Program-made: the position numbers and the translations under genes
Source: Hydrogenophaga sp.
GTDB lineage: Bacteria > Pseudomonadota > Gammaproteobacteria > Burkholderiales > Burkholderiaceae_C
Length of the DNA: 34,912 nucleotides
Assembly (NCBI GenBank): GCA_031426175.1
Contig: JANPKR010000257.1
Coordinates: 1 to 34,912, forward strand
Reading direction: 5' to 3'
Part shown: one piece after another, positions 16,685 through 29,470 of the stretch
Position numbering within the stretch: position 1 is the first letter of the stretch
Layout of the letters: every line of letters starts with the position of its first letter
The notes under the pieces: generated by a model
Databases searched by the model: none
What the model saw: the letters and a program-made list of their open reading frames with translations, nothing else
What the model was told of the DNA's origin: nothing

Positions 16685-16819
16685 ATCATTCGCAAGTTTG
16701 AACCAAATCATCTTGGTGGATCATGTGAGAAATTATTGCTGATTGATCGTGATATTTTGAAGTTTTATTTCAGGCAACAGTCACTAGCATCGGCACTTCA
16801 GCATTTTTCGGAGAGCAAC

Positions 16820-18688
<1,869 letters not shown>

Positions 18689-18720
18689 ACTGTTGGACGG
18701 TCGGTTGACTAGTGTTCCGA

Positions 18721-18780
18721 CCCAATAAAGTCGAAAACTAGTCAATAAAGTCGAAAACCGGAAAAAAGAGTCGAAAACCA
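18721..18780 (+). repeat. Three contiguous 20-bp TnsB-binding-site-like repeats
   Basis: CCCAATAAAGTCGAAAACTA / GTCAATAAAGTCGAAAACCG / GAAAAAAGAGTCGAAAACCA, starting 8 bp from the TGT terminus. Confidence 0.88.
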
Positions 18781-18867
18781 ATCTCTGGCTTGGATGCGGC
18801 ACAGTGACGAGTCTTAAGGTCACCCAAGCAACGCCCATGATGACTACCTGCGCGACGAGGCGAGTTG

Positions 18868-18944
18868 AATGGCTCTTTTGCAGCGGTTGCTGCCGTTCGA
18901 GTTTTCAACGTGAATGCCCTTGGCGTGCCGGATTGCGATCACTC
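18868..18944. repeat. Left copy of a degenerate palindromic repeat (two ~30-bp imperfect palindromes)
   Basis: GCAGCGGTTGCTGC (18880) and GCGATCACTC (18935) recur as GCAGCGATTGCTGC (29365) and GCGGTCACTC (29420) with the same 55-nt offset. Confidence 0.45.
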
Positions 18945-19013: not shown

Positions 19014-19226
19014 CAACAGCGTGCAGAGATCTGCAAGCTCGACGAGCAAGACTGCAGCAGCATCAAGCATGGTGCGATCAATCACCTGGGCGTGTCGCCA
19101 GCGTTGATGGCTTACCGCGAGCACAAGGCCATGCTGGGCAAGACTTAGGCCGGCGAGAAGTTCCCGGCGGTTGTGATGATGGGGGCTGGCTGGATGGTGG
19201 TCCCCGACATCAAACCAGGCAAGTGA
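19014..19226 (+). pseudogene. Gene remnant (C-terminal fragment with an internal stop), family not recognised
   Basis: Frame QQRAEICKLDEQDCSSIKHGAINHLGVSPALMAYREHKAMLGKT*AGEKFPAVVMMGAGWMVVPDIKPGK* has GC3-rich codons, TAG at 19146-19148 and no start codon; hairpins follow immediately. Confidence 0.45.
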
Positions 19227-19229
19227 TGG

Positions 19230-19300
19230 TGAGTGGCTGACCCGCCCTGGGTCAGCCACTCAGTCGGGATCGCTGTTTGCAGGTGATCCCGTCCTTTTTG
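19230..19300 (+). terminator. Tandem hairpins / terminator between the remnant and convergent sorU
   Basis: Perfect 14-bp stem TGAGTGGCTGACCC-GCCCT-GGGTCAGCCACTCA (19230-19262), then CGGGATCGC...GTGATCCCG followed by TCCTTTTTG. Confidence 0.6.
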
Positions 19301-19335
19301 TCAGTTGGCGCAACAGCGCTGTGGCCAACCAGCCA

Positions 19336-19683
19336 TCACTTTGATCCACCCGAAGCCTTGGCCACGTAGGCCGCCAGGGCGGCAATTTGCGCATCACTGA
19401 GTTTGCCGTTGTAGGACGGCATCTGCCCAATGCCGTTGCGCAGCGCGGTGGCCACGCGCTTGGCATCGGGCTTGAGCTCGTCCAGGCTGGGGCCCACGGC
19501 GCCTTCGGCTCCCGCGTCCTTGAGCGCATGGCACAGGGCGCAGGCAGGCACCGCGCCTTGGCCGAACAACACCTTGCCTTGTTGAAGTTGCGCGGCATCG
19601 TCGGCGGCGTGCACGGGCAGCACTGTGAATGCCAACGACCACAGGGCAGCGACCAACGCGTGTTTTTGGATTGTGCGCTTCAT
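19336..19683 (-). CDS. sorU: Monoheme cytochrome c, SorU-type electron acceptor of sulfite dehydrogenase
   Basis: Signal peptide (VHA-A), PACALCHALKDAG..GAVGPSLDELKP, NGIGQMP axial Met; ATGA overlap with sorT. Confidence 0.85.
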   Translation of the reverse strand: MKRTIQKHALVAALWSLAFTVLPVHAADDAAQLQQGKVLFGQGAVPACALCHALKDAGAEGAVGPSLDELKPDAKRVATALRNGIGQMPSYNGKLSDAQIAALAAYVAKASGGSK

Positions 19684-20912
19684 GCCACGCTCACTTTCAC
19701 GGCGTGGTCGGCCCAGCTGGTGTTGTTGTAGCCGCCCGCGTTTTCCATGCGTTGTTCGGGCTGCACGTTGCCTGCGGTGTCGGTGGCTCGGCTCGCCAGG
19801 GTGAACTGGCCCGCCGGCAGGCGCGCCGCAAAAACAAACTGCCGCCACGCAAAGCGGCCGAGGTCGGGCCCCACCATGCGCGCGAGCTGCCAGGTTTTTC
19901 CGCCGTCCAGAGAAACCTCGACCTTGGCCACCGCGTTCATGCCGCCAAACGCCACGCCATGGATCTGTGTGTCACCCGCTTTAAGCGGGGCGCCGTCCGT
20001 GCCGGGACCGTTGATCCACGACTTCACCGTCATTTCCTGCACCGATGGCTGCGACGGGTCGCCCTTCGCGCCGGGCGGTGAAATGCGGTAGCCGTGCGAC
20101 ATGATGCGTGCGTCGGTCTCCTGAGCGGTGAAGGCCAGGCGTTTGACGTACTTGATGTTGTTCACGCCCGTGTAACCCGGCACGATCAAGCGCAGTGGGC
20201 CGCCGTGGGCCAGCGAAATCGGCACACCGTTCATTTCCCAGGCCAGCAGGGCATCGGCGAGTGCGGCAGCAGGCACCGAGCGTTCCACGATCACGCTCTT
20301 GGGGTCCAGTCCATCGGGGAGTTTTTCGCCGCCTGTGCCGGTGAGGTAGGCCATGCCGGCCTCCACGCCGCCCAGGGCATCCACCACCCAGCGCACCGGC
20401 ACACCGCTCCACACCACACAGCCTGCTGCGCCCACTTGCCAAGGCGTTCCACTGGGCTTGTTGGGGAAGTAGCCGCGTCCGTTGCCAGAGCATTGCAACA
20501 CCATCGCCGTGGTCTCGATGCCTATGCGCTTGAGGTCGCCCAGCGTGAGTTTGCGCGGGTTCTTCACCCCCTCGATGTTGATCTCCCAGGCATCGCGGTT
20601 GCCCAGGATCGAGGCGTCGGGCGCGGGCAGGTTGTTGCGGATGTAGAGCTGCTCGGACGGCGTGATTACGCTGGTGCCGAACACACTGCGCTTGGTCTCA
20701 ATGGTGGTGCTGCTGTGCACGATCAGGCTGGCCGGGTCCTTCCAGCCCACGTACGCTGGCAGAGGCTTGGCAGCACCGGCCAAGGCGACGGGCGCGGTCT
20801 CACCAGCAGCGGCTGCGGTGCGGCCAAAGCTGGCCAGACCAACGGCAGCCAAAGCAGCGCCGCTGCCGGCCAGCAGGTGGCGCCGGGGGAGCGAGGTGGG
20901 TTGTTGGTTCAT
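19680..20912 (-). CDS. sorT: Periplasmic molybdopterin sulfite dehydrogenase, SorT-type (sulfite oxidase family)
   Basis: Tat signal RRHLL, YIRNNLP, Mo-ligand LQCSGNGR, WSGVP, HGGPLRLIVPGYTGVNNIKY, Ig-like dimer domain, GYNN. Confidence 0.9.
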   Translation of the reverse strand: MNQQPTSLPRRHLLAGSGAALAAVGLASFGRTAAAAGETAPVALAGAAKPLPAYVGWKDPASLIVHSSTTIETKRSVFGTSVITPSEQLYIRNNLPAPDASILGNRDAWEINIEGVKNPRKLTLGDLKRIGIETTAMVLQCSGNGRGYFPNKPSGTPWQVGAAGCVVWSGVPVRWVVDALGGVEAGMAYLTGTGGEKLPDGLDPKSVIVERSVPAAALADALLAWEMNGVPISLAHGGPLRLIVPGYTGVNNIKYVKRLAFTAQETDARIMSHGYRISPPGAKGDPSQPSVQEMTVKSWINGPGTDGAPLKAGDTQIHGVAFGGMNAVAKVEVSLDGGKTWQLARMVGPDLGRFAWRQFVFAARLPAGQFTLASRATDTAGNVQPEQRMENAGGYNNTSWADHAVKVSVA

Positions 20913-20997
20913 TTCTGGGGTCTCCGGTGGTTGGGCGTCGTGCGCCGGTTGGGGTGAAAGGGGTGAGCGGTTGATTCGTTGACAGGGACGCGGTGCC

Positions 20998-21600
20998 TCA
21001 GCCTGGCCCGGACACGGGAGGTGCCTGCAGTGCCGTCTGCGCGACCGCCAGTGCCTTCTTTTTCTGGGCCACCAGCAACAAGGGCTTGCCCTCGCGCGAG
21101 CGGATCACCTTCCAGTGCACGTTGCTCCACCAGCCGCTGGCCTCGCGCAGGTCCACAGACTGGTCAAAGGCATACACCGTCACCATGCCGCCCTTCTCGA
21201 AGAACGTGGTGAGGTGGTAAGCGAGGTGACCTTCGATATCGCATGGCCGCATGAGTTGGGGAAACCCGGGCACCACGTTGGCGTCCCGCATGCCCAGGTG
21301 CATGAGCAACTGGCGCTGCTCCATGAAACTGCCCCGCAAGCTGCGCTCGTGGTATTCGTGGTCGATCGCGTCGCGCACCATCGCTGGCGGTCGCACGGCG
21401 AGCACCCCGCCGCTGGTGCCACCGGCCAGCAAAAGCGCAGCCAGAAAACGCTGCAAGCCGCGTCGCGCCAGCAGCGGCTGCGGCTTTCGGTACAGGTGTG
21501 CCGGTGCGTCGCTGGCCTCGAAGGCGATCGCCAACTCGGCGCGCGCGCGCAAATCGAATTCGCTGTCGGGCAGGAAAGGCGCGTCGGTATCGGGGCTCAT
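20998..21600 (-). CDS. Putative membrane-anchored anti-sigma factor (DUF3379-like)
   Basis: ATGA-coupled downstream of an ECF sigma; single hydrophobic segment; periplasmic part with DHEYHE and CDIEGHLAYHL. Confidence 0.6.
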   Translation of the reverse strand: MSPDTDAPFLPDSEFDLRARAELAIAFEASDAPAHLYRKPQPLLARRGLQRFLAALLLAGGTSGGVLAVRPPAMVRDAIDHEYHERSLRGSFMEQRQLLMHLGMRDANVVPGFPQLMRPCDIEGHLAYHLTTFFEKGGMVTVYAFDQSVDLREASGWWSNVHWKVIRSREGKPLLLVAQKKKALAVAQTALQAPPVSGPG

Positions 21601-22130
21601 GTCTTGGTCCTGCGAAACGGGGTAACGTTGACATCGGCCTTGGGTGTCGCAGGTACCCCCATGGCCAGCTTCAAAGCGTCGCGCGCACGGGCTAGGCGCG
21701 ACAACACCGTGCCGGGCGCGATCTCCAGCGCCTCGGCCATCTGGGCGGTGGGCATGTCGTCGAAATAAAACAGCACCAGCACCTCGCGGTGGATGGGCGC
21801 CAGGCGCGCGAGCGCCTTGACGACATCGAGTTTGTCGTCCAGCCCCGCGTCGGGCGCCGCTTGCTCGGGCTGCTCTTCATCGTCCAGCGACTGCATGCTG
21901 GGTGCGGCCTGGCGAAAGGCGGCGCGGCGCATGATCTGAAAGAGCCAAGCCCGTGCCAGCGCAGCGTCGCGCAGTTGCTCCCGGTGCTTCCAGGCGTTGG
22001 CAAAACAGTCTTGCACCACGTCTTCGGCAATGGCGCGCGAACCAGTGAGCGCCCACGCACTGCGCAGCAAAAAACGGTAGTGCTCACGCACCCATTGGTT
22101 ATAGCGGGACTCGGCAGACTGGAACAGCAT
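21597..22130 (-). CDS. ECF RNA polymerase sigma factor (sigma-B of the island)
   Basis: AEDVVQDCF, RAWLFQIMRR (region 2); LAPIHREVLVL...AQMAEALEIAPGTVLSRLARAR (region 4). Start 22130, possibly leaderless. Confidence 0.93.
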   Translation of the reverse strand: MLFQSAESRYNQWVREHYRFLLRSAWALTGSRAIAEDVVQDCFANAWKHREQLRDAALARAWLFQIMRRAAFRQAAPSMQSLDDEEQPEQAAPDAGLDDKLDVVKALARLAPIHREVLVLFYFDDMPTAQMAEALEIAPGTVLSRLARARDALKLAMGVPATPKADVNVTPFRRTKT

Positions 22131-22135
22131 GGTGA

Positions 22136-22165
22136 TCAAGAGCGCTGCATGGCTTGGTTCATTCC
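22136..22165 (-). promoter_or_regulatory. ECF-type promoter GGAATGAA-N12-GCGCTCTTGA directly upstream of sigma-B
   Basis: Same boxes and spacing as the copy at 24040-24069; ends 5 nt before ATG 22130. Confidence 0.72.
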
Positions 22166-22200
22166 GTGGCGCTCATTGGTACTTTCCCTAGGGCTGTCGA

Positions 22201-22560
22201 TCAAGGCCCCCGCGTCCCACCCAGCGACGGAAATTCCGCTTCCGCACCTTTGGCTGTGCGCTGCTGCAGGGTGTGCAGTCGGCGTTGCATGCTCTGGATC
22301 TCCACCGTCTGCCCGGCAATGATTTCCTCGGCCAACTGCCGGGTGACAGGATCGCGCCCATGCTGCAACACCAGCCGCGCCATGTCCACAGCGCCGGCGT
22401 GGTGCGGAATCATCATCGCCAGAAAGTCCTGGTCGGCCTGGCCTGCGTAGCCCGGGCTGTGCATGGCCTGCATCATGCGGGCCATCGATTCGTCCATATC
22501 CCGCTGGAATGCGCTGGTGTGCGCGGCGCTGGCGCCGTGGCTGGTGTGCGCGCCGCTCAT
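22201..22560 (-). CDS. DUF305 (CopM-like, ferritin-fold) Met/His-rich protein without a signal peptide
   Basis: DQDFLAMMIPHHAGAVDMA...LAEEIIAGQTVEIQSM; ATGA overlap with the upstream beta-propeller gene. Confidence 0.85.
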   Translation of the reverse strand: MSGAHTSHGASAAHTSAFQRDMDESMARMMQAMHSPGYAGQADQDFLAMMIPHHAGAVDMARLVLQHGRDPVTRQLAEEIIAGQTVEIQSMQRRLHTLQQRTAKGAEAEFPSLGGTRGP

Positions 22561-23951
22561 GCCGTCTGGCCCTTCTCGCCCACACGCACGTAGACGAGGT
22601 TGATGCTCTTTTTGTTGCGCAGCGCGCCAGAGGGCAGCGTCAGATTGCCCAGGGGGATCTGCGCAATGAAGGTCGGGCGCAGCGGGTCGCTCACATCAAA
22701 TGCACTGCACACGGTCTGGCCCGCGTTGGGCGTGCCGGGCAGCTCGTCCTGTTCGTGGGCCACATACAGCAGCGTGTTCTCGGGGTTGGTCCACAACCCG
22801 TGCGACTCGCGGCCACGGCTGGAGAAGGTGCCCACCACCTTGCGCTGTCCGCCCGGAGCGCTGCGGTCGATGATGGCGATCGGGCTCGACGCCACGCCGC
22901 CGGGGCCACCATCGTCGATGCGCGCCAGGCTGGCATAGACCACGCTGCCGCGCGCATTGCGCACGAACTCAACGTGGTTGGGCCGAGCGCCCATGCCGAG
23001 TGGCACGGTGTCGATCAGGTCGAAGCCACCCTGCGTCGAGCGGCAAGACACCGCATCAGCCAGCTTGTGCGAGAACCACACCTCGGCACCGTCGGGTGTG
23101 GTCTTCATGAAGGGCGTGAAGCCGGGTTTGTCCTGTGCGCTGATGTCCAGCGTGGTCAGCCGTTGCGGTTGGCTGTGGCCATCCGCGCCGGGGTTGACGC
23201 GGAACACGTCGATCTTCGACACCTTCTGGCTGGCCACAAAGGCCAACGTACCCTCACGGTTGAACCACACCTGCGCCGGGCCGCTCAGTGTGGGCAGGTA
23301 TTGGCGAACCGCGCTGGAGCCCGGGCTGTCGGCCCCCTTGAGCTGGCGAACGGCACGATCGACGCCGACGATGGCAATACGGTCTTCACCGCGCAGCGTG
23401 ACCCACAGCTCGCGGCCGTTGCGCGTGAAAGTGGGCTCGTGCGGTTCGCGGCCCAGCAGCAGGCCACTACTCAGGCGCTCGGGGTTGGTGGTGGGCCCAG
23501 ACGCAGGGTTGGGTGTGTTGCCGATCACGCGGCGCTGCTCGGCGTCGATCAGATAAATGTTGCTGGAGCCGCGCCCGCTGGTGGCCAGCAGCCGGCCGTC
23601 GGGCGACGGCACCGCGCCGTGGGCGTCGATGCAGCCGTGGTACAGCGGCTTGTGGATCATCGCCGCGTGTGTCGGCGCCACGCCGGCGGTGACGTAGCGA
23701 AATGGAGGCCGCGGGTCTTCGTCGAAGCTGGTCAGGTTGATCGTGCTCTCGACGGTGTTCGTCTTCGGATCGATGACGACCAGCGTGTTGGAGTCTTCAG
23801 TGGTGATGAAGACGCGGTCGCGCGGGTCGATGCCGGTGGCTGCGGCTCCCGCTGAAGCGCCGGACGGGGCCTGGGCATGTGCTGCGGGCAGCGCGCTGGC
23901 TGCCGCGGCGGCCAGGGTGTACTTGAGAATGTCGCGGCGTTGGGTGGTCAT
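22557..23951 (-). CDS. Tat-exported YncE/YVTN-like beta-propeller protein
   Basis: Tat motif QRRDILK plus AHA cleavage site; repeated blade motifs SPDGRLL, TRNGRELWV, NREGTLAFV, TPDGAEVW, NPENTLLYV. Confidence 0.82.
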   Translation of the reverse strand: MTTQRRDILKYTLAAAAASALPAAHAQAPSGASAGAAATGIDPRDRVFITTEDSNTLVVIDPKTNTVESTINLTSFDEDPRPPFRYVTAGVAPTHAAMIHKPLYHGCIDAHGAVPSPDGRLLATSGRGSSNIYLIDAEQRRVIGNTPNPASGPTTNPERLSSGLLLGREPHEPTFTRNGRELWVTLRGEDRIAIVGVDRAVRQLKGADSPGSSAVRQYLPTLSGPAQVWFNREGTLAFVASQKVSKIDVFRVNPGADGHSQPQRLTTLDISAQDKPGFTPFMKTTPDGAEVWFSHKLADAVSCRSTQGGFDLIDTVPLGMGARPNHVEFVRNARGSVVYASLARIDDGGPGGVASSPIAIIDRSAPGGQRKVVGTFSSRGRESHGLWTNPENTLLYVAHEQDELPGTPNAGQTVCSAFDVSDPLRPTFIAQIPLGNLTLPSGALRNKKSINLVYVRVGEKGQTA

Positions 23952-24039
23952 GTGTGCTTTCTGAGTTGGTGTGGAGAGTGATCGCTTGGGTCGTGGGCCG
24001 GGAGCCGCCGATGAACCACTGCCCAGCGCTTGCTTCAGG

Positions 24040-24069
24040 TCAAGAGCGCGGCTCGGGCCGTTTCATTCC
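24040..24069 (-). promoter_or_regulatory. ECF-type promoter GGAATGAA-N12-GCGCTCTTGA upstream of the beta-propeller/DUF305 operon
   Basis: Matches 22136-22165 at all 18 box positions with the same 12-nt spacer. Confidence 0.72.
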
Positions 24070-24112
24070 CTGGGCATGCCGACAGCGCGTCGCGCCGACG
24101 CCGCCCTGGCCT

Positions 24113-25012
24113 TCAGCGCGGGGTGCCAAGTTGCCGATAGACCTCGGCCGACACCTGCGCCAGCACGCTGCGGTCGGCGTCGGACGACAGGGCGTAGCCG
24201 AAGGGACCGTCGACCCAGTAGAAGACATTGACCACACCTTCGCGTGCGAAGCGGAAGGCCGTGTCTGTGTTCTTCACGCTGGCCTGCAGTGCCTTGTCCG
24301 GCCCCGCGGCACTGCCCACGTCGGCGACATCGTTGGATACGTACAGCGTCAGTTTGCTGCCGAGCTCGTTGCGGTACATGAACTGCGCCACCGGCCCCTG
24401 GCCGCCCGGCAACAGGCGCCCGCCTTCCAGCGTATAGCCCTGGGCCTGCAGGTACGGCGGCTTCATCGGCGCGCCCATGCGCTTGGACAGCCAGGCCACG
24501 AGCTGGTCTTCGTGCGCCGCGTCCACCTCGACCGGGCGGCGCGGGTCGGGACTGTATACCGCGTGAGCCACCGCCGCGCGCTGCGCGAAGCCGCCCGCTG
24601 ACGCCAGCGTCAGGCCGCGCTCGGCGGGTGCCGCGGCGGCCATGCGGCCGGCATCGTCGCCCCCCGCGGGCAGGCCGCCCCGCAAGCCCCAGCCTGTGGC
24701 GCCGCTGATGACGGCGATGGCGATCCCAGCGGCCAGGCGCTGGAGGTACCAAGGCGTCTGCGGCACGGCGCGCGGGCGCGCCGATTTCAGCAGGCGCTGC
24801 GGCGGCTGTTCATCCAGCACGGGATCGAACAAGGCGTGCAGTTCGCGCTTATGCGCCCGGTAGGCCTCCAAGCGCTGCGCGTCTTCAGGGCGTGCGGCCA
24901 GATAAGCGGCGATCTCGACCTGGCGCTCAGCGGGCAGGCGGCCATCAACGAACGCATGCAGGTCGGCCTCGGTGACCGGGGGAATGGACGGTGGCGGACG
25001 GTCGGTATTCAT
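24113..25012 (-). CDS. Transmembrane anti-sigma factor (PrtR/RsiW-like)
   Basis: TEADLHAFVDGRL N-terminus, TM segment, AVAHAVYSPD..RPVEV, LVAWLSKRMG, GGRLLP...AQFMY; directly downstream of an ECF sigma. Confidence 0.9.
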   Translation of the reverse strand: MNTDRPPPSIPPVTEADLHAFVDGRLPAERQVEIAAYLAARPEDAQRLEAYRAHKRELHALFDPVLDEQPPQRLLKSARPRAVPQTPWYLQRLAAGIAIAVISGATGWGLRGGLPAGGDDAGRMAAAAPAERGLTLASAGGFAQRAAVAHAVYSPDPRRPVEVDAAHEDQLVAWLSKRMGAPMKPPYLQAQGYTLEGGRLLPGGQGPVAQFMYRNELGSKLTLYVSNDVADVGSAAGPDKALQASVKNTDTAFRFAREGVVNVFYWVDGPFGYALSSDADRSVLAQVSAEVYRQLGTPR

Positions 25013-25031
25013 GGGTTGCTTCGCAATACAT

Positions 25032-25535
25032 TCATTTGACGACTTTCAGCCGCACCGGTTCTGCGCGGCCTTCCATCAGGCCGCGCAGGCGCTCACGGCC
25101 TCGCGACAGGCGCGACATCACGGTGCCGATGGGGATACCCAGGGCCTGCGCCACATCGGCATAGGCCATGTCTTCCAGCGTCACCAGAAGAAGCACTTCC
25201 TTCTGCTCGACGGGCAGCAAGTCCAGTGCAGCCTGCAGATCCAGTACAGCCAGCCTGTCGGTTTGTGTCGGCGCCACCGGCACTTCGGGCGTGTCGTCGT
25301 CCATGGTCACGGTGTGCAGCCTGGGACGGCGCACGCCATCGACGTGCAGGTTGTGCATGATGCTGAAGAGCCAGGCGCGCATGTCGGCCACGCCGCCCCA
25401 CAGGTTCGACTTGGCCCAGGCCCGCTCCAGCGTGTCCTGCACCAAATCGTCGGCGTCGTCACGGTTGTTCACCAGTGCGCGCGAATAGCGGCGCAGGCGC
25501 GGCACCCAGCTCAGCAGGCTTGCGTCGTCTTGCAT
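25032..25535 (-). CDS. ECF RNA polymerase sigma factor, PrtI/ECF26-like (sigma-A of the island)
   Basis: VPRLRRYSRAL...ADDLVQDTLERA, RAWLFSIMHN, YADVAQALGIPIGTVMSRLSRGR. Confidence 0.93.
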   Translation of the reverse strand: MQDDASLLSWVPRLRRYSRALVNNRDDADDLVQDTLERAWAKSNLWGGVADMRAWLFSIMHNLHVDGVRRPRLHTVTMDDDTPEVPVAPTQTDRLAVLDLQAALDLLPVEQKEVLLLVTLEDMAYADVAQALGIPIGTVMSRLSRGRERLRGLMEGRAEPVRLKVVK

Positions 25536-25581
25536 CGGGGGGTCGTGGCCTGAGGGTCTGGACGGAAGTCGACAGCAAATG

Positions 25582-25971
25582 TCATTCCTTGATGATGTGC
25601 CAGACGTCTTTGAAGTTGTCGCCGGCGCGGTCGCCGGGCTTCTGGTCGGCCTGGTAGGTGTACACCGGCTTGCCCTTGTAGGCCCACTGGCGCGCACCGT
25701 CGTCGCGCATGACGATCGTGTATGCACCGGCGGGTTGGTCGCTGGCGGCGGCCATCGCGGGCGGCCACAGCGCGGCGCAGCCGCCGTTGCAGGTGCTTTT
25801 GCCGCTGCCTGCCACGTCCTTGTCGAAGGTGTAGAGCGTCATGCCCTTGGCGTCGACCAGCGCGCCGTTGGCGAGCTTGGCCGGCGCGTCGGCAGCCATA
25901 GCGCCGGTGAGTGGTGCCGCGAAGGAAGCCGCTGTGATCAGCAGCGCGGCCAGAGTCGAAAGGTGCTTCAT
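25582..25971 (-). CDS. COG4315 secreted repeat protein (Yx(FWY)xxD motif)
   Basis: Signal peptide; GMTLYTFDKD, CNGGCAALWPP, QWAYKGKPVYTYQAD, GD...WH. Confidence 0.88.
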   Translation of the reverse strand: MKHLSTLAALLITAASFAAPLTGAMAADAPAKLANGALVDAKGMTLYTFDKDVAGSGKSTCNGGCAALWPPAMAAASDQPAGAYTIVMRDDGARQWAYKGKPVYTYQADQKPGDRAGDNFKDVWHIIKE

Positions 25972-26019
25972 GGGGTTGTCCTTTAGGGTCTGGTGGAGAG
26001 TAGCCACGCTGCGTGCCGT

Positions 26020-26451
26020 TCAGTAAGCCGCAGCCACCGCCAGCTTGGGGTCGATCTGCCAGGTTTCACTGACGATCTTGCCTTCACGGAACGTCAGCAC
26101 GTAGCGCACCTTGATGGGCATCTTGCCTTCGAAGACGACGTTGGCCGAGACGGTGGCGCCCTTGGGGTTGGCCGATTCTTCAATCTGGCCGACTGTGAGC
26201 TTCAGTGGGCCGACGGCCTTGCCGAACTTCTCCCAGGTGCCGCGAATGGCATCGGTGGTGGCATAGGTGCCGTCGAGTGGGCCGCCTACCCAGTTCAGCT
26301 GGGCCTGGTCGGCATAGGCACGCATGACGATCTGGGTGTCGCCCGAGGCGATGGCCTGGAAGTGCGTGCGGGCGTCGTCGCTGGGGGCGGCGAAGGCGCT
26401 GCCGGAGGCGAGCGTCAGGGCGGTGGCGGCGAAAGCGAAAGTCTTGAACAT
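26020..26451 (-). CDS. Secreted SnoaL/NTF2-like protein
   Basis: Signal peptide (AFA-A); HFQAIASGD...YADQAQLNWVGGPLDG.Y...IRGTW; GKIVSETWQ C-terminal strand. Confidence 0.75.
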   Translation of the reverse strand: MFKTFAFAATALTLASGSAFAAPSDDARTHFQAIASGDTQIVMRAYADQAQLNWVGGPLDGTYATTDAIRGTWEKFGKAVGPLKLTVGQIEESANPKGATVSANVVFEGKMPIKVRYVLTFREGKIVSETWQIDPKLAVAAAY

Positions 26452-26530
26452 TGTGGGCTCCGATGAAGGGTTGGTGTGAAGTGAAGGGGGGTGAGTGCTG
26501 GACGAAGGGTCCGATAGGTCCCGACAAAAG

Positions 26531-26560
26531 AGCAGACGGCGTCGGCATGCGGTCTATTCC
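26531..26560 (-). promoter_or_regulatory. ECF26-like promoter GGAATAGA-N12-GCCGTCTGCT upstream of the SnoaL-COG4315-sigma-A-anti-sigma operon
   Basis: GGAAT -35 box with a CGTC -10 box in the same register as the other two island promoters. Confidence 0.55.
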
Positions 26561-26612
26561 AGAGCGTGCAAAGAAATTTAGGGTCAGGGCCCTGGGCCGT
26601 GAATTCGAGGCT

Positions 26613-27719
26613 TCAGCCCAGCAGGGCCGGCACCCAGCGGTTGATGAGCGCGCCTCCGACGATGAGCCAGCCGAACAAGATCAACGCCAGCAGCAGCGGC
26701 TTGGCCCCGGCCTTGCGAATGGCGCCGATGTGCGTGGCCAGGCCGAGCGCAGCCATCGCCATCGCCAGCAGCGCGGTGTCAATCTCGATCGTCACTGCCA
26801 CCACCGACGCCGGCAGCCATTGCAGCGAATTGAGCAACACAACCGCGACGAAGCCGAAGGCGAACCAGGGCACAGCGAGTTGACCCTTGGCGTGAGCATG
26901 CTCTGCCTCCACCAGGGCTTGCAGGGTGCTGTCGCGCGCCAGCCAAGCCGACAGCATCACCAGGAACGGCGCCAGCATCATTACTCGAACCATCTTCGCG
27001 ATGACGGCCGAGTTGGCTGCGTCCGGGCCCACCGAACGTGCTGCGGCCACCACCTGGGCCACCTCGTGGATGGTCGATCCGACGTAGATGCCGAACCCGT
27101 TGGCGCCGCCGGGGATCAGCGCCCAGTGCCGGTTCAGCTCGAACAGCGCCGGGTACAGGAAGATCGCCAGCGTGCCGAACACCACCACCGTGGCCACCGC
27201 CACCGTGACCTGCTCGGCGCGCGCCTTGACCACCGGCTCGGCGGCCATCACCGCAGCAGCGCCGCAGATGGCACTGCCAGCGCCGATCAGCATCGCCGTC
27301 TTGCGCTCCAGGCCCAGCCAGCGCGTGCCGATGAGGCAGGCCAGTGCGAAGGTCGAGCCCAATATCATTGTGTCGATGGCGACACCAGCTATGCCAACAT
27401 GGTCAATGTCCTGCACGGTGAGCCGCAGGCCGTACAGCACCACGCCCAGGCGAAGCAGGTTCTGCTTGGAGAAGTTGACGCCGGCGCCGCTGGCTACCGC
27501 CCAGCGCGGGGCCCACGGGTAAACCGTGTTGCCCACGATCATGCCCAGCACGATGGCCAGCGTCAGCGCACTGAAGCCATGGTCCTGCAGCCAGGCGATG
27601 CGGCCCAGCGCGATACCGGTGGCAGCCAAGGCGCCGCTCAGGGCCAGGCCGGGGAGCATGCGTGCGAAAGCCGATGCAGAGGCCGATGTGCGTGGCTCAG
27701 GAAGTACGTTGATGGTCAT
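26613..27719 (-). CDS. yeiH: YeiH / UPF0324 (putative sulfate exporter, PSE family) membrane protein
   Basis: LLRLGVVLYGLRL, LIGAGSAICGAAAV, GSTIHEVAQVVAA, AKMVRVMMLAP, MAMAALGL. Confidence 0.92.
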   Translation of the reverse strand: MTINVLPEPRTSASASAFARMLPGLALSGALAATGIALGRIAWLQDHGFSALTLAIVLGMIVGNTVYPWAPRWAVASGAGVNFSKQNLLRLGVVLYGLRLTVQDIDHVGIAGVAIDTMILGSTFALACLIGTRWLGLERKTAMLIGAGSAICGAAAVMAAEPVVKARAEQVTVAVATVVVFGTLAIFLYPALFELNRHWALIPGGANGFGIYVGSTIHEVAQVVAAARSVGPDAANSAVIAKMVRVMMLAPFLVMLSAWLARDSTLQALVEAEHAHAKGQLAVPWFAFGFVAVVLLNSLQWLPASVVAVTIEIDTALLAMAMAALGLATHIGAIRKAGAKPLLLALILFGWLIVGGALINRWVPALLG

Positions 27720-27773
27720 GCTGCTTGCCTCCGGTTGAAGTTCATGAGGACGAAGCTTCCGGCTTCATAGATG

Positions 27774-27788
27774 ACCCGTCAAACGGGT
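27774..27788. promoter_or_regulatory. Dyad in the yeiH/yeiE divergent promoter (candidate LysR site)
   Basis: ACCCGT-CAA-ACGGGT. Confidence 0.4.
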
Positions 27789-27836
27789 TGTATCGCTAAG
27801 ATGTACCCATCTGATCGCTTTGCAAACAAATCCGCC

Positions 27837-28766
27837 ATGAATACCCTTCGCCTCACGCTGCGACAGCTGCAGATCTTCGTGGCGGTTGCGCGCAGCGGCA
27901 CTACCACGGCAGCCAGCGCCGAGATCGCGCTGTCGCAGTCGGCCACCAGCTCGGCCGTGAATGAACTTGAGCGGCTGCTGTCGCTGCGCCTGTTCGACCG
28001 CGCGGGCAAGCGCCTGCTGCTCAACGACAACGGCCGTGCGTTACTGCCGCGGGCCCTGGCGCTGCTGGACGGTGCCGCCGGCATCGAGTTGATGTCCCGC
28101 GATGGCAGCGCCCAGGCGCAGTCGCTGCGCATCGGCGCCAGCACCACCATCGGCAACTATGTGCTGCCCAGGCTGCTGGCCCGTTTTGTCGCAGCGCAAC
28201 CGGGCCATGCCAGTGCCTGGCGCTCAAAGGTCGTGATCGGAAACACGGCGGCCATCTGTGACGCGGTCGCTGCGTTTGAACTGGACGTGGGCCTGATCGA
28301 AGGGCCTTGCCACCAAGCGGCGCTGGCCGTCACGCCATGGCACCAGGACGAGATGGTGGTCGTTACATCGCCCGACAGCGCGTGGGCACGAATGAGCCTG
28401 GCCGGCGAGCGGGTGCCAATGCGGACACTGCGTGAAGGGGTCTGGCTGGTGCGTGAGTTGGGCTCGGGAACGCGCGAGGCCACCGACCAAAGTCTGCTGC
28501 CCCACTTGCGCTCCTACCGTCGAAGCATCGAGCTGGGAAGTTCGGAGGCGATCAAACATGCGGCCGAGGCGGGTATGGGGGTGGCCTGCCTTTCGTCGTG
28601 GGTCGTGAGCGACGCTTTGGAGGCCGGCCGCCTGTGCCGCATCGCCACGACCTTGCCGCGGCAGCTCCGACAATCTCACCTGGTCGTGCATCGCGACAAA
28701 CAGCCCACCGCTTCGCTGCTGGCATTTGTCGACCAGGTATCTGGCGCCGAGAAAACGGCGCCATGA
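27837..28766 (+). CDS. yeiE: LysR-family regulator, YeiE/CysL-like
   Basis: LTLRQLQIF...SQSATSSAVNELE, LFDRAGKRLLLNDNG, IGASTTIGNYVLP, GLIEGPC, RELGSGTRE, ELGSSEAIK; divergent from yeiH. Confidence 0.88.
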   Translation: MNTLRLTLRQLQIFVAVARSGTTTAASAEIALSQSATSSAVNELERLLSLRLFDRAGKRLLLNDNGRALLPRALALLDGAAGIELMSRDGSAQAQSLRIGASTTIGNYVLPRLLARFVAAQPGHASAWRSKVVIGNTAAICDAVAAFELDVGLIEGPCHQAALAVTPWHQDEMVVVTSPDSAWARMSLAGERVPMRTLREGVWLVRELGSGTREATDQSLLPHLRSYRRSIELGSSEAIKHAAEAGMGVACLSSWVVSDALEAGRLCRIATTLPRQLRQSHLVVHRDKQPTASLLAFVDQVSGAEKTAP

Positions 28767-29220: not shown

Positions 29221-29470
29221 GAACGACCGGTACAGGTAATCGATCGGTCGCTTGAGATCCTGACCGGTGAGCGACCGCTTGCGGTGGCGCCCATGGACTC
29301 TGCCGTCGAACCTAAGTGGCAGCAATCAGTCTTGAGCGGGCGTCGGAACTTCGAGACCCGCTTCGCAGCGATTGCTGCTTTTGGCTCACTCGGGTTTCAA
29401 ACGCACTCCATGCCCAAAAGCGGTCACTCTTCAGCGTCTTCTGGACAGCTGCTTGCGGACAAAGCTGTCG
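29221..29470. repeat. Cluster of about six degenerate ~25-30-bp palindromes (right copy of the repeat at 18868-18944)
   Basis: CGACCG-N15-CGGTCG (29224-29250), GCGACCGC-TT-GCGGTGGC (29271-29288), TGGCAGC-N12-GCGGGCG (29317-29342), GACCCGC-N12-GCTGC (29355-29378), a unit ending in GCGGTCACTC (29420-29429), GACAGC-N14-GCTGTC (29444-29469). Confidence 0.45.

Follow-up and report, generated by a model that had tools for sequence, protein, structure and literature searches.

What a block of sulfite-related genes does downstream of glmS in a Hydrogenophaga sp., and how it came to lie there, is the question raised by contig JANPKR010000257.1 (assembly GCA_031426175.1, a genome that is 83% complete); the window is the whole stretch of this DNA that was analysed, 34,912 nucleotides long. 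A preliminary description had read ten co-oriented genes and a yeiH/yeiE pair at 19336..28766 as a self-contained island for sulfite sensing and detoxification, carried inside a Tn7-like element. All 12 genes are intact at these coordinates, ten of them co-oriented on the minus strand beside the divergent yeiH/yeiE pair, but the unit that they form is longer, with its true ends at 18880 and 29332 (10,453 bp). This 12-gene cassette likely protects Burkholderiales from sulfite and would work as three regulatory units, not as one operon; taken as a whole, we regard this explanation as probable. The parts of the cassette are known, and what is new is that known parts of the sulfite response are joined into one spreading cassette; two predicted promoter classes and the sites at its ends are also new here. 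The genes are as follows.

19336..19683, minus strand: sorU, periplasmic cytochrome c (CxxCH at C48, Met88; NF052248 over cut-off)
19680..20912, minus strand: sorT, predicted molybdenum sulfite dehydrogenase exported by twin-arginine translocation (Tat) (NF052247 over cut-off; Cys141 as Mo ligand, Arg92)
20998..21600, minus strand: predicted anti-sigma-B (asB), DUF3379-like, with one transmembrane segment (hydropathy), overlapping the sigB stop codon
21597..22130, minus strand: sigma-B (sigB), group-3 sulfite-oxidase-associated extracytoplasmic function (ECF) sigma factor (Pfam/NCBIfam)
22201..22560, minus strand: DUF305/CopM-like Met- and His-rich protein (PF03713 over cut-off)
22557..23951, minus strand: Tat-exported seven-bladed beta-propeller of YVTN/lactonase fold (Pfam, Tat signal, AlphaFold2)
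24113..25012, minus strand: predicted anti-sigma-A (asA), from its position after sigma-A and a weak NF010501 match
25032..25535, minus strand: sigma-A (sigA), ECF26/RpoE1-type sigma factor (Pfam/NCBIfam; operon layout and promoter as in RpoE1)
25582..25971, minus strand: secreted Lipoprotein_15 repeat protein, counterpart of Sinorhizobium meliloti SMc01418 (PF03640)
26020..26451, minus strand: secreted SnoaL-like protein (PF12680, SnoaL_2; ratio of nonsynonymous to synonymous substitution rates, dN/dS, 0.08-0.11)
26613..27719, minus strand: yeiH, membrane protein and likely sulfite exporter (TIGR00698 over cut-off; nine hydrophobic segments)
27837..28766, plus strand: YeiE/FinR-type LysR regulator, divergent from yeiH (NF008095 over cut-off)

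All 12 genes are real and under purifying selection, with dN/dS values of 0.06-0.30 in 35 of 36 gene comparisons with three diverged copies and of 0.52 in the remaining one. Family calls were made by the curated cut-offs of Pfam and NCBIfam, and bit scores are given with the cut-off in brackets. SorT scores 653 bits (570) against NF052247 and only 206 against the SorA model, under the cut-off of 600 of the latter. It matches the S. meliloti enzyme (PDB 4PW3) with an E value of 1.5e-146 and with the Cys and Arg motifs aligned, retains the Mo-ligating Cys and active-site Arg described for that enzyme (PMC4760952), and carries a twin-arginine (RR) signal. By family and residues it is therefore a predicted sulfite dehydrogenase. 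The adjacent sorU encodes a protein scoring 118 bits (100) against NF052248, with 4PW9_B as its closest PDB match; SorT would oxidise sulfite to sulfate, with electrons passing through SorU to the chain of the host. A role in sulfite oxidation is supported by two older copies in Ramlibacter (L099, L149), in which SorA and SorB, both over cut-off, take the place of SorT and SorU. No other sorT or yeiH orthologue was found in the host genome. A Pfam/NCBIfam scan of the cassette genes detected none for molybdenum cofactor synthesis, Tat export or cytochrome c maturation, and the cassette thus depends on host cofactor and export machinery, the host supplying moaA; in this respect the unit is not self-contained, as had been proposed.

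A second arm of the response would lie in the cytoplasm. YeiH scores 371 bits (233) against TIGR00698 and is likely a sulfite exporter by its family. The LysR regulator scores 298 bits (281) against NF008095, the subfamily that contains YeiE, and six of the eight residues of the sulfite pocket of Cronobacter YeiE (PMC8931317) are identical, the other two being Ser to Thr changes; the selectivity Glu and Arg are among the positions retained. In Salmonella, YeiE activates yeiH, which is needed for sulfite resistance (bioRxiv 10.1101/2025.07.27.662810). By analogy, cytoplasmic sulfite would bind the YeiE-type regulator, which would switch on yeiH and so lead to sulfite export.

The other two units would be governed by the two ECF sigma factors, each followed by a putative anti-sigma gene. 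Sigma-B is identical, as judged by eye, to an Acidovorax sp. NO-1 entry (ZP_09328597/EHL23495) in the input tables of Tan 2019 (PMC6527743), and was found at E <= 1e-45 in one of 300 other genomes sampled across the class. Sigma-A stands in an operon with a Lipoprotein_15 gene upstream and an anti-sigma gene downstream, as in the RpoE1 type, and matches RpoE1 at about half of the region 2 and region 4 residues in a comparison made by eye. Both anti-sigma roles are predicted from position, with no family match over cut-off for either protein: anti-sigma-B has feature matches in the ESM Atlas to DUF3379 clusters and none over cut-off in Pfam or NCBIfam, and anti-sigma-A, which is named 'anti-sigma factor' by RefSeq on the Acidovorax T1 plasmid, has no segment above the hydropathy threshold. 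Three candidate promoters were found, all with a GGAAT upstream element.

22139..22165, minus strand: predicted sigma-B promoter GGAAT-N16/17-YGCTC before sigB-asB-sorT-sorU (19 of 19 distinct sigB upstreams)
24043..24069, minus strand: predicted second sigma-B promoter, YGCTC class, before the propeller and DUF305 genes
26534..26560, minus strand: predicted sigma-A promoter GGAAT-N16/17-CGTC before snoaL-lipoprotein-sigA-asA (17 of 17 distinct snoaL upstreams)

The rate expected by chance is 0.0003-0.0007 per 300 nt. The CGTC class fits the mapped RpoE1/RpoE4 promoters (PMC6180224, Table 1), and the YGCTC class follows sigma-B: it occurs also in six loci that carry sigB-asB-sorTU with no sigma-A within the 20 kb fetched, and it lies within 1.5 kb upstream of the propeller gene in 23 of the 26 distinct loci that carry sigB, but in none of the 19 that do not. 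Neither class (GGAAT/YGCTC or GGAAT/CGTC) precedes sorT itself in any of 17 distinct upstreams. Periplasmic sulfite would thus free sigma-B from its membrane anti-sigma factor, and sigma-B would transcribe both the propeller-DUF305 pair and sigB-asB-sorT-sorU, with sorT read as part of the transcript that starts at the sigB promoter. Such an arrangement would account for the report of Tan 2019 that group 3 sulfite-oxidizing enzyme (SOE) genes have no known promoter before them (PMC6527743). Sigma-A would read the CGTC promoter and so raise SnoaL and the lipoprotein when a related signal, from sulfur compounds or the envelope, is present. That both anti-sigma factors would sense sulfite, as first proposed, is an overstatement: in Tan 2019 it was taurine or tetrathionate to which switches of the RpoE1 type responded (PMC6527743), and relatives of sigma-A often occur without a sulfite oxidase. 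The shared GGAAT element would permit cross-talk between the two sigma factors. A preliminary statement in the same paper that group 3 species have no close RpoE1 homologue (PMC6527743) appears to sit badly with Thauera aminoaromatica S2 (L144), which holds all 12 genes; sigma-A is, however, only RpoE1-like.

Between these regulators lie four accessory proteins, which had been called uncharacterised. For three of them, the lipoprotein, the DUF305 protein and the propeller, there are precedents among the regulons of RpoE1. In S. meliloti the rpoE1 operon begins with the lipoprotein gene (PMC3511301, section 23), and in Starkeya novella a DUF305 and YVTN propeller pair is an RpoE1 target, induced on tetrathionate and not on thiosulfate (PMC6527743). 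SnoaL is the only gene without precedent in the literature consulted. The propeller search kept the best 80 of 277 relatives, a set biased toward close relatives, and in all 80 loci a DUF305 gene follows the propeller gene, overlapping its stop codon in 37 of 41 distinct pairs. The DUF305 protein scores 86 bits against the CopM model NF049983, just under the cut-off of 90, is composed of 8.4% Met, has no signal peptide in the cassette lineage, and keeps eight Met and three His residues invariant across 40 homologues. The propeller was modelled by AlphaFold2 with an alignment at a predicted local distance difference test score of 93 (37.5 for a single-sequence fold), and its fold matches a YVTN propeller (Z 38), a lactonase (37) and N2O reductase (33.5), with thiocyanate dehydrogenase also listed. 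Seven conserved His, several of them at blade starts in a reading of the sequence, and many conserved Arg were noted, against six His listed for the copper propeller of thiocyanate dehydrogenase (PMC6504805), as a comparison of counts. The fold alone does not separate the propeller from such copper enzymes as thiocyanate dehydrogenase or N2O reductase. That it is a copper-loaded enzyme acting on a sulfur oxyanion is a doubtful guess, and a lactonase-like hydrolase would be as likely.

These accessory proteins bear on what the cassette is for. It could serve sulfur-oxyanion metabolism (of thiosulfate, tetrathionate or sulfonate, with energy drawn through SorTU) more than detoxification, a propeller loaded with copper by the DUF305 protein acting on such a substrate. 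The tetrathionate response of the Starkeya pair would fit, as would a sox cluster on contig C8 of the host, the conserved His at several blade starts, and the presence of N2O reductase and thiocyanate dehydrogenase among the fold matches. However, lactonase and YVTN propellers score above N2O reductase, Snov_0991 and the propeller are likened by description only, xsc was not found over cut-off in the host genome, and Tan 2019 argues against a main energy role for such enzymes (PMC6527743); we consider it unlikely that sulfur-oxyanion metabolism is the main function. Somewhat less likely still is a reading in which sulfite matters to sorTU and yeiE/yeiH alone, while the propeller-DUF305 pair and the operon of sigma-A form a general periplasmic stress kit (against chlorine, oxidants or copper) that rides along. 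An ECF sigma factor reportedly features in the hypochlorite defence of another bacterium. That bacterium scavenges hypochlorite with a Met-rich peptide and methionine sulfoxide reductase (PMC4436054). In some loci the propeller-DUF305 and ECF26 pairs are found together without a sulfite oxidase, once ahead of MsrPQ, the DUF305 protein is Met-rich and CopM-like, and cus genes and a cusF remnant lie nearby. Against such a kit, the promoter of the propeller gene is of sigma-B class where sigma-B is present and never otherwise, which ties the propeller to the sorT regulon; gene order is kept over 20% DNA divergence, and cus is not co-conserved.

Sulfite defence by the cassette as a whole is favoured by co-conservation, on which the preliminary description had staked its reading. 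In 60 propeller loci at least 4 kb of downstream sequence was available, and sigB, asB and a sulfite oxidase are all present in 42 of them; of the 40 loci with long flanks to either side, 20 contain the full set of 12 genes and 23 the block of ten. Judged from sequence, the genes very probably serve sulfite defence. Several observations weigh against this reading. No sulfite oxidase lies within the flank in 18 of the 60 loci, one of which has MsrPQ instead, and the halves of the cassette also occur apart: six loci have sigB-asB-sorTU by itself, and one genome (G288) has yeiE-yeiH-lipoprotein-sigA-asA but no sorT. Near-identical copies lack yeiH/yeiE on the T1 plasmid and at two further loci (L094, L097), a loss that seems recurrent. 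The LysR regulator misses the YeiE equivalog NF040889 (334 bits against a cut-off of 480), and is therefore classed as YeiE/FinR-type and not as YeiE proper. Finally, the promoter patterns were drawn partly from upstreams that were later counted, and the loci are related, so that the promoter counts overstate independence. Since its halves live apart, the cassette looks like a fusion of older modules.

Its recent history is one of spread. A stretch of the cassette is 99-100% identical over at least 2.6 kb in 10 of 126 other genomes of the genus, and four more hold short or diverged matches; in four of the genomes with such near-identical stretches the other shared genes are mostly 85-92% identical. 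Among 400 genomes of the family, two other genera carry it at 99% and 98% identity, two copies stand at 91-92%, and four further copies are about 80% identical over 4.6-7.3 kb. It occurs at 99.9% on the Acidovorax T1 plasmid, where it is cut in yeiH by IS1071, and at 83% on the Methylibium T29 plasmids. The older copies, at about 80% identity, keep the gene order. The cassette thus likely spreads horizontally as a ready-made unit. The island first proposed stands in its co-conservation, mobility and very probable sulfite role, and falls in being neither self-contained nor Tn7 cargo, the latter for reasons that lie in its ends.

18867..18898, no strand assigned: left boundary site, made of a 13-bp outer arm, a 6-bp centre GCAGCG (18880-18885) and a 13-bp inner arm
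29314..29345, no strand assigned: right boundary site, made of an inner arm, a 6-bp centre CAGTCT (29327-29332) and an outer arm
29352..29383, no strand assigned: following two-armed site of this type, 32 bp beyond, again centred on GCAGCG

Nearly all copies end at these two short palindromic sites, the flanking sequence changing at 18880 on the left and after 29332 on the right. Among loci from GTDB genomes and plasmids, exactly these two positions are where 12 distinct left arms and 8 distinct right arms are attached. In all, no fewer than 22 unrelated flanks on the left and 10 on the right meet the cassette at the same base. Eighteen outer arms (two RIT-linker arms excluded; RIT, recombinase in trio) share a consensus that mirrors the inner arms, with C at -7 in 18 of 18, G at -9 in 15 and T at -3 in 14; it reaches 7.7 bits against 1.8 +/- 0.4, a value attained by none of 2000 random sets. 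A metagenome scan with the left end returned 29 loci with 12 further non-RIT arms, one of them a variant of an earlier flank, in which C at -7 recurs in all 12, G at -9 in 8 and T at -3 in 9. Five loose-end arms in sequencing runs all show the G and the C (read by eye; one is repeated in the metagenome set). Arms of 13 bp around a 6-bp centre are the layout found in the core sites of tyrosine recombinases. No recombinase is encoded by the cassette, which would likely move by site-specific recombination at its end sites with an outside enzyme, thereafter riding Tn7-like elements, plasmids and islands. That the block is ordinary transposon or plasmid cargo, its shared ends being the scar of one old capture copied by assorted elements, is very improbable: it does lie in a plausible Tn7-like element in the window, near tns genes in one genome (G002) and beside Tn3 and IS1071 on a plasmid, and no common recombinase gene was seen in flanks read by eye, but one capture would leave one flank, and the unrelated flanks on both sides share the join base and the arm consensus.

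Movement by recombination at the end sites has points against it as well. Two loci join four bases further in on the left, one right flank type changes 16 bases early, and four loci have no left end. No circular junction appeared in eight runs of contigs, which drop rare forms, and the two end centres differ, a simple excision circle not being expected. The arm matrix is not enriched genome-wide (11 per Mb against 14 per Mb in the control). Four further high-scoring sites or their neighbours in the matrix scan carry the GCAGCG centre, which was left unscored. The window and a second genome (G322), at the same 32-bp spacing with different sequence, each hold a second GCAGCG centre beyond the right end, and exchange between matched centres of neighbouring modules is therefore possible, as for pdif modules. 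An integron gene cassette was considered and rejected, the junctions lying at GCAGCG or CAGTCT and not at G/TTRRRY, and the 12 genes having their own promoters; no attC model was run. Contig C419 holds a gene for an integron-integrase-like protein, with a Pfam integrase match only, which was set aside since the junctions are not attC-like.

Which recombinase might act was sought in the flanks. No recombinase common to them was seen, their genes other than RIT having been read by eye without a family-model scan. RIT elements lie beside four GTDB or plasmid loci and 2 of the 29 metagenome loci (one a RIT end, one a short ritA match). A RIT trio with terminal inverted repeats joins the cassette through a GCAGCG centre in three cases (G322, G390, L089), and the T1 plasmid holds a remnant; in G322 (L062, L063; C1:1283600-1306200) three identical trios surround the cassette, with joins on both sides. 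The RIT ends of G322 are also connected to other modules by way of GCAGCG and a linker that is a perfect palindrome of 20 bp, and this linker occurs without an adjacent RIT in L087. Because most copies have no RIT beside them, and none was found in the cassette or in this host genome, the recombinase was not assigned to RIT. The host carries XerC/D-like genes. The arms appear to differ from the dif arms of XerC/D, and the module is 10 kb long. In other respects the cassette resembles pdif modules, which are also recombinase-free, have two-armed sites with 6-bp centres and occur in many contexts and in runs of sites. Such modules are known from Acinetobacter (PMC12907356, PMC5790767). A pdif-like system of Burkholderiales, with two-armed GCAGCG/CAGTCT sites served by outside tyrosine recombinases (possibly RIT) and with a three-sensor sulfite defence including a copper propeller as its passenger, is a tentative extension of these findings and less likely than not.

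Further sites of this kind were noted. Contig C483 (19900-20230) breaks off 119 bases into the cassette, whose start is preceded there by a different outer arm, a junction that represents either a second cassette copy or a strain variant; another GCAGCG-centred site lies about 90 bases earlier, next to an aromatic oxygenase/P450 gene cluster. At about 8671 on contig C398 stands a two-armed site with a GCAGCG centre that is unrelated to the sulfite cassette. In the window, a possible site centred on GAGTCT lies at 18800-18830, after the Tn7-type end and before the cassette; with it there would be a mini-module of 65 bp, comparable to those of 27 and 32 bp seen at other places.

The surroundings of the cassette in this host comprise the following features.

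16817..18688, plus strand: glmS, host gene that marks a Tn7-type target (Pfam SIS and GATase domains)
18713..18778, plus strand: single Tn7-type end, outside the cassette, beginning with TGT at the 25th base beyond the stop codon of glmS
19014..19148, plus strand: decayed cusF-like remnant inside the cassette, a 70% DNA match to a gene on contig C151
29508..34912, minus strand: cusA, cusB and a cut cusC-like gene, metal efflux cargo outside the cassette

The Tn7-type end holds three repeats 20 bp apart. The same end follows glmS in 6 of 14 loci examined in the genus, one with a TnsA gene about 15 kb away, which makes the end on the glmS side the cargo end in this family. The end 25 bases after glmS and the repeated sites are as in Tn7-like elements at glmS, from which the cassette differs in having ends of its own and in residing at other places too. 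A second end, a 5-bp duplication and tns genes were all looked for without success in the incomplete genome, the contig ending in cargo and the family searches having no positive control; a Tn7-like element is plausible but unclosed. The preliminary placement inside such an element is thus borne out by one end at glmS and not by a second end or tns genes, and the block is not Tn7 cargo proper, since it has precise ends of its own and is found in no fewer than 22 other contexts on the left. Of the other copies examined, not one is located at glmS, and the copy in G002 lies downstream of a different tns-type operon.

How the cassette compares with described systems can be read part by part. Group 3 loci (PMC6527743, PMC3511301) likewise keep sigma, anti-sigma and sulfite dehydrogenase genes together in Acidovorax, Thauera and their relatives; here a predicted promoter stands before sigB and the propeller, in contrast to the absence of a known one before the SOE genes there, and an RpoE1-type operon is adjacent. 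Mobility and linkage to yeiE/yeiH are not mentioned in the accessible parts of these sources. The RpoE4/RpoE1 control of sorTU in S. meliloti (PMC3511301, PMC6180224) shares SorT/SorU orthologues, two ECF switches, the Lipoprotein_15 gene and the GGAAT/CGTC promoter, but differs in its two separate chromosomal sites, a group 1 sigma factor, a sorT promoter of its own and a pseudoazurin gene after sorU. In Starkeya novella, where Snov_0990-0993 accompany SigE/SorAB (PMC6527743), a DUF305 and YVTN propeller pair also stands next to an RpoE1-type sigma and anti-sigma pair, with a connection to the control of a sulfite oxidase; gene order differs, and the pair is under RpoE1 there, whereas it is predicted under sigma-B here. 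The enterobacterial YeiE/YeiH pair (bioRxiv 10.1101/2025.07.27.662810, PMC8931317) is equally divergent, with starts about 120 bp apart and a retained pocket, but is a chromosomal pair without periplasmic oxidation or ECF control. RIT elements are three tyrosine recombinases in inverted repeats, described without cargo in the accessible text of PMC10214605; they are not in the cassette and stand only beside some copies. No description of the 12-gene unit or of its end sites was found in a literature search whose coverage was thin in subscription papers and in Tan 2019 figures S8-S10.

For the group 3 sigma factors left unstudied in Tan 2019 (PMC6527743), the cassette offers a candidate promoter and a candidate regulon, and it is present in strains available in culture (Acidovorax T1, Thauera aminoaromatica S2, Piscinibacter sakaiensis and Alicycliphilus Ylb10). 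What adds value beyond the known parts is the promoter predicted for group 3, together with the end sites. Circuits that are scattered in rhizobia and enterobacteria are gathered in one unit now moving between genera, and this spread suggests that sulfite or related oxyanions exert selection today in waters both fresh and engineered, as may be supposed from habitats given in record titles. The end sites may point to a general way in which large blocks of cargo reach Tn7-like elements, plasmids and islands, and to a part played by the recombinases of RIT elements.

Additional observations concern the content of related loci. The older copies hold extra secreted proteins (L069 12727-13533 and 15237-17352; L068 9726-10760), namely a second propeller, a hydrolase of metallo-beta-lactamase fold and one further protein, some with their own sigma-A-type promoter; the identification of one extra gene as an SMc02156-like binding protein was rejected when the match failed. 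In a locus from Hydrogenophilales (L159), propeller and DUF305 genes and those for an ECF sigma factor and an anti-sigma factor are followed by msrP and msrQ. RNA-labelled runs were not used as proof of expression, as they consist of contigs only and DNA may be present; the block occurs in them (22 rows; 9 studies; 7 recorded as RNA), and a single contig of run X11 spans 19069-26912, with yeiH/yeiE on separate contigs. In runs X1 and X5 unrelated sequence interrupts yeiH near window position 26750. The cusF remnant, a weak Pfam CusF match under cut-off (E 0.016), suggests an earlier stay of the cassette in a copper island. The cus genes were rejected as part of the unit, being only 89% identical in G023 and about 28 kb from the cassette there; contig C49 has another cusC-like copy, at 81%. 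At the glmS loci of genus relatives (L192-L204) the Tn7-like family carries very varied cargo, and G457 holds an apparent 6.3-kb element with both ends and no tns genes.

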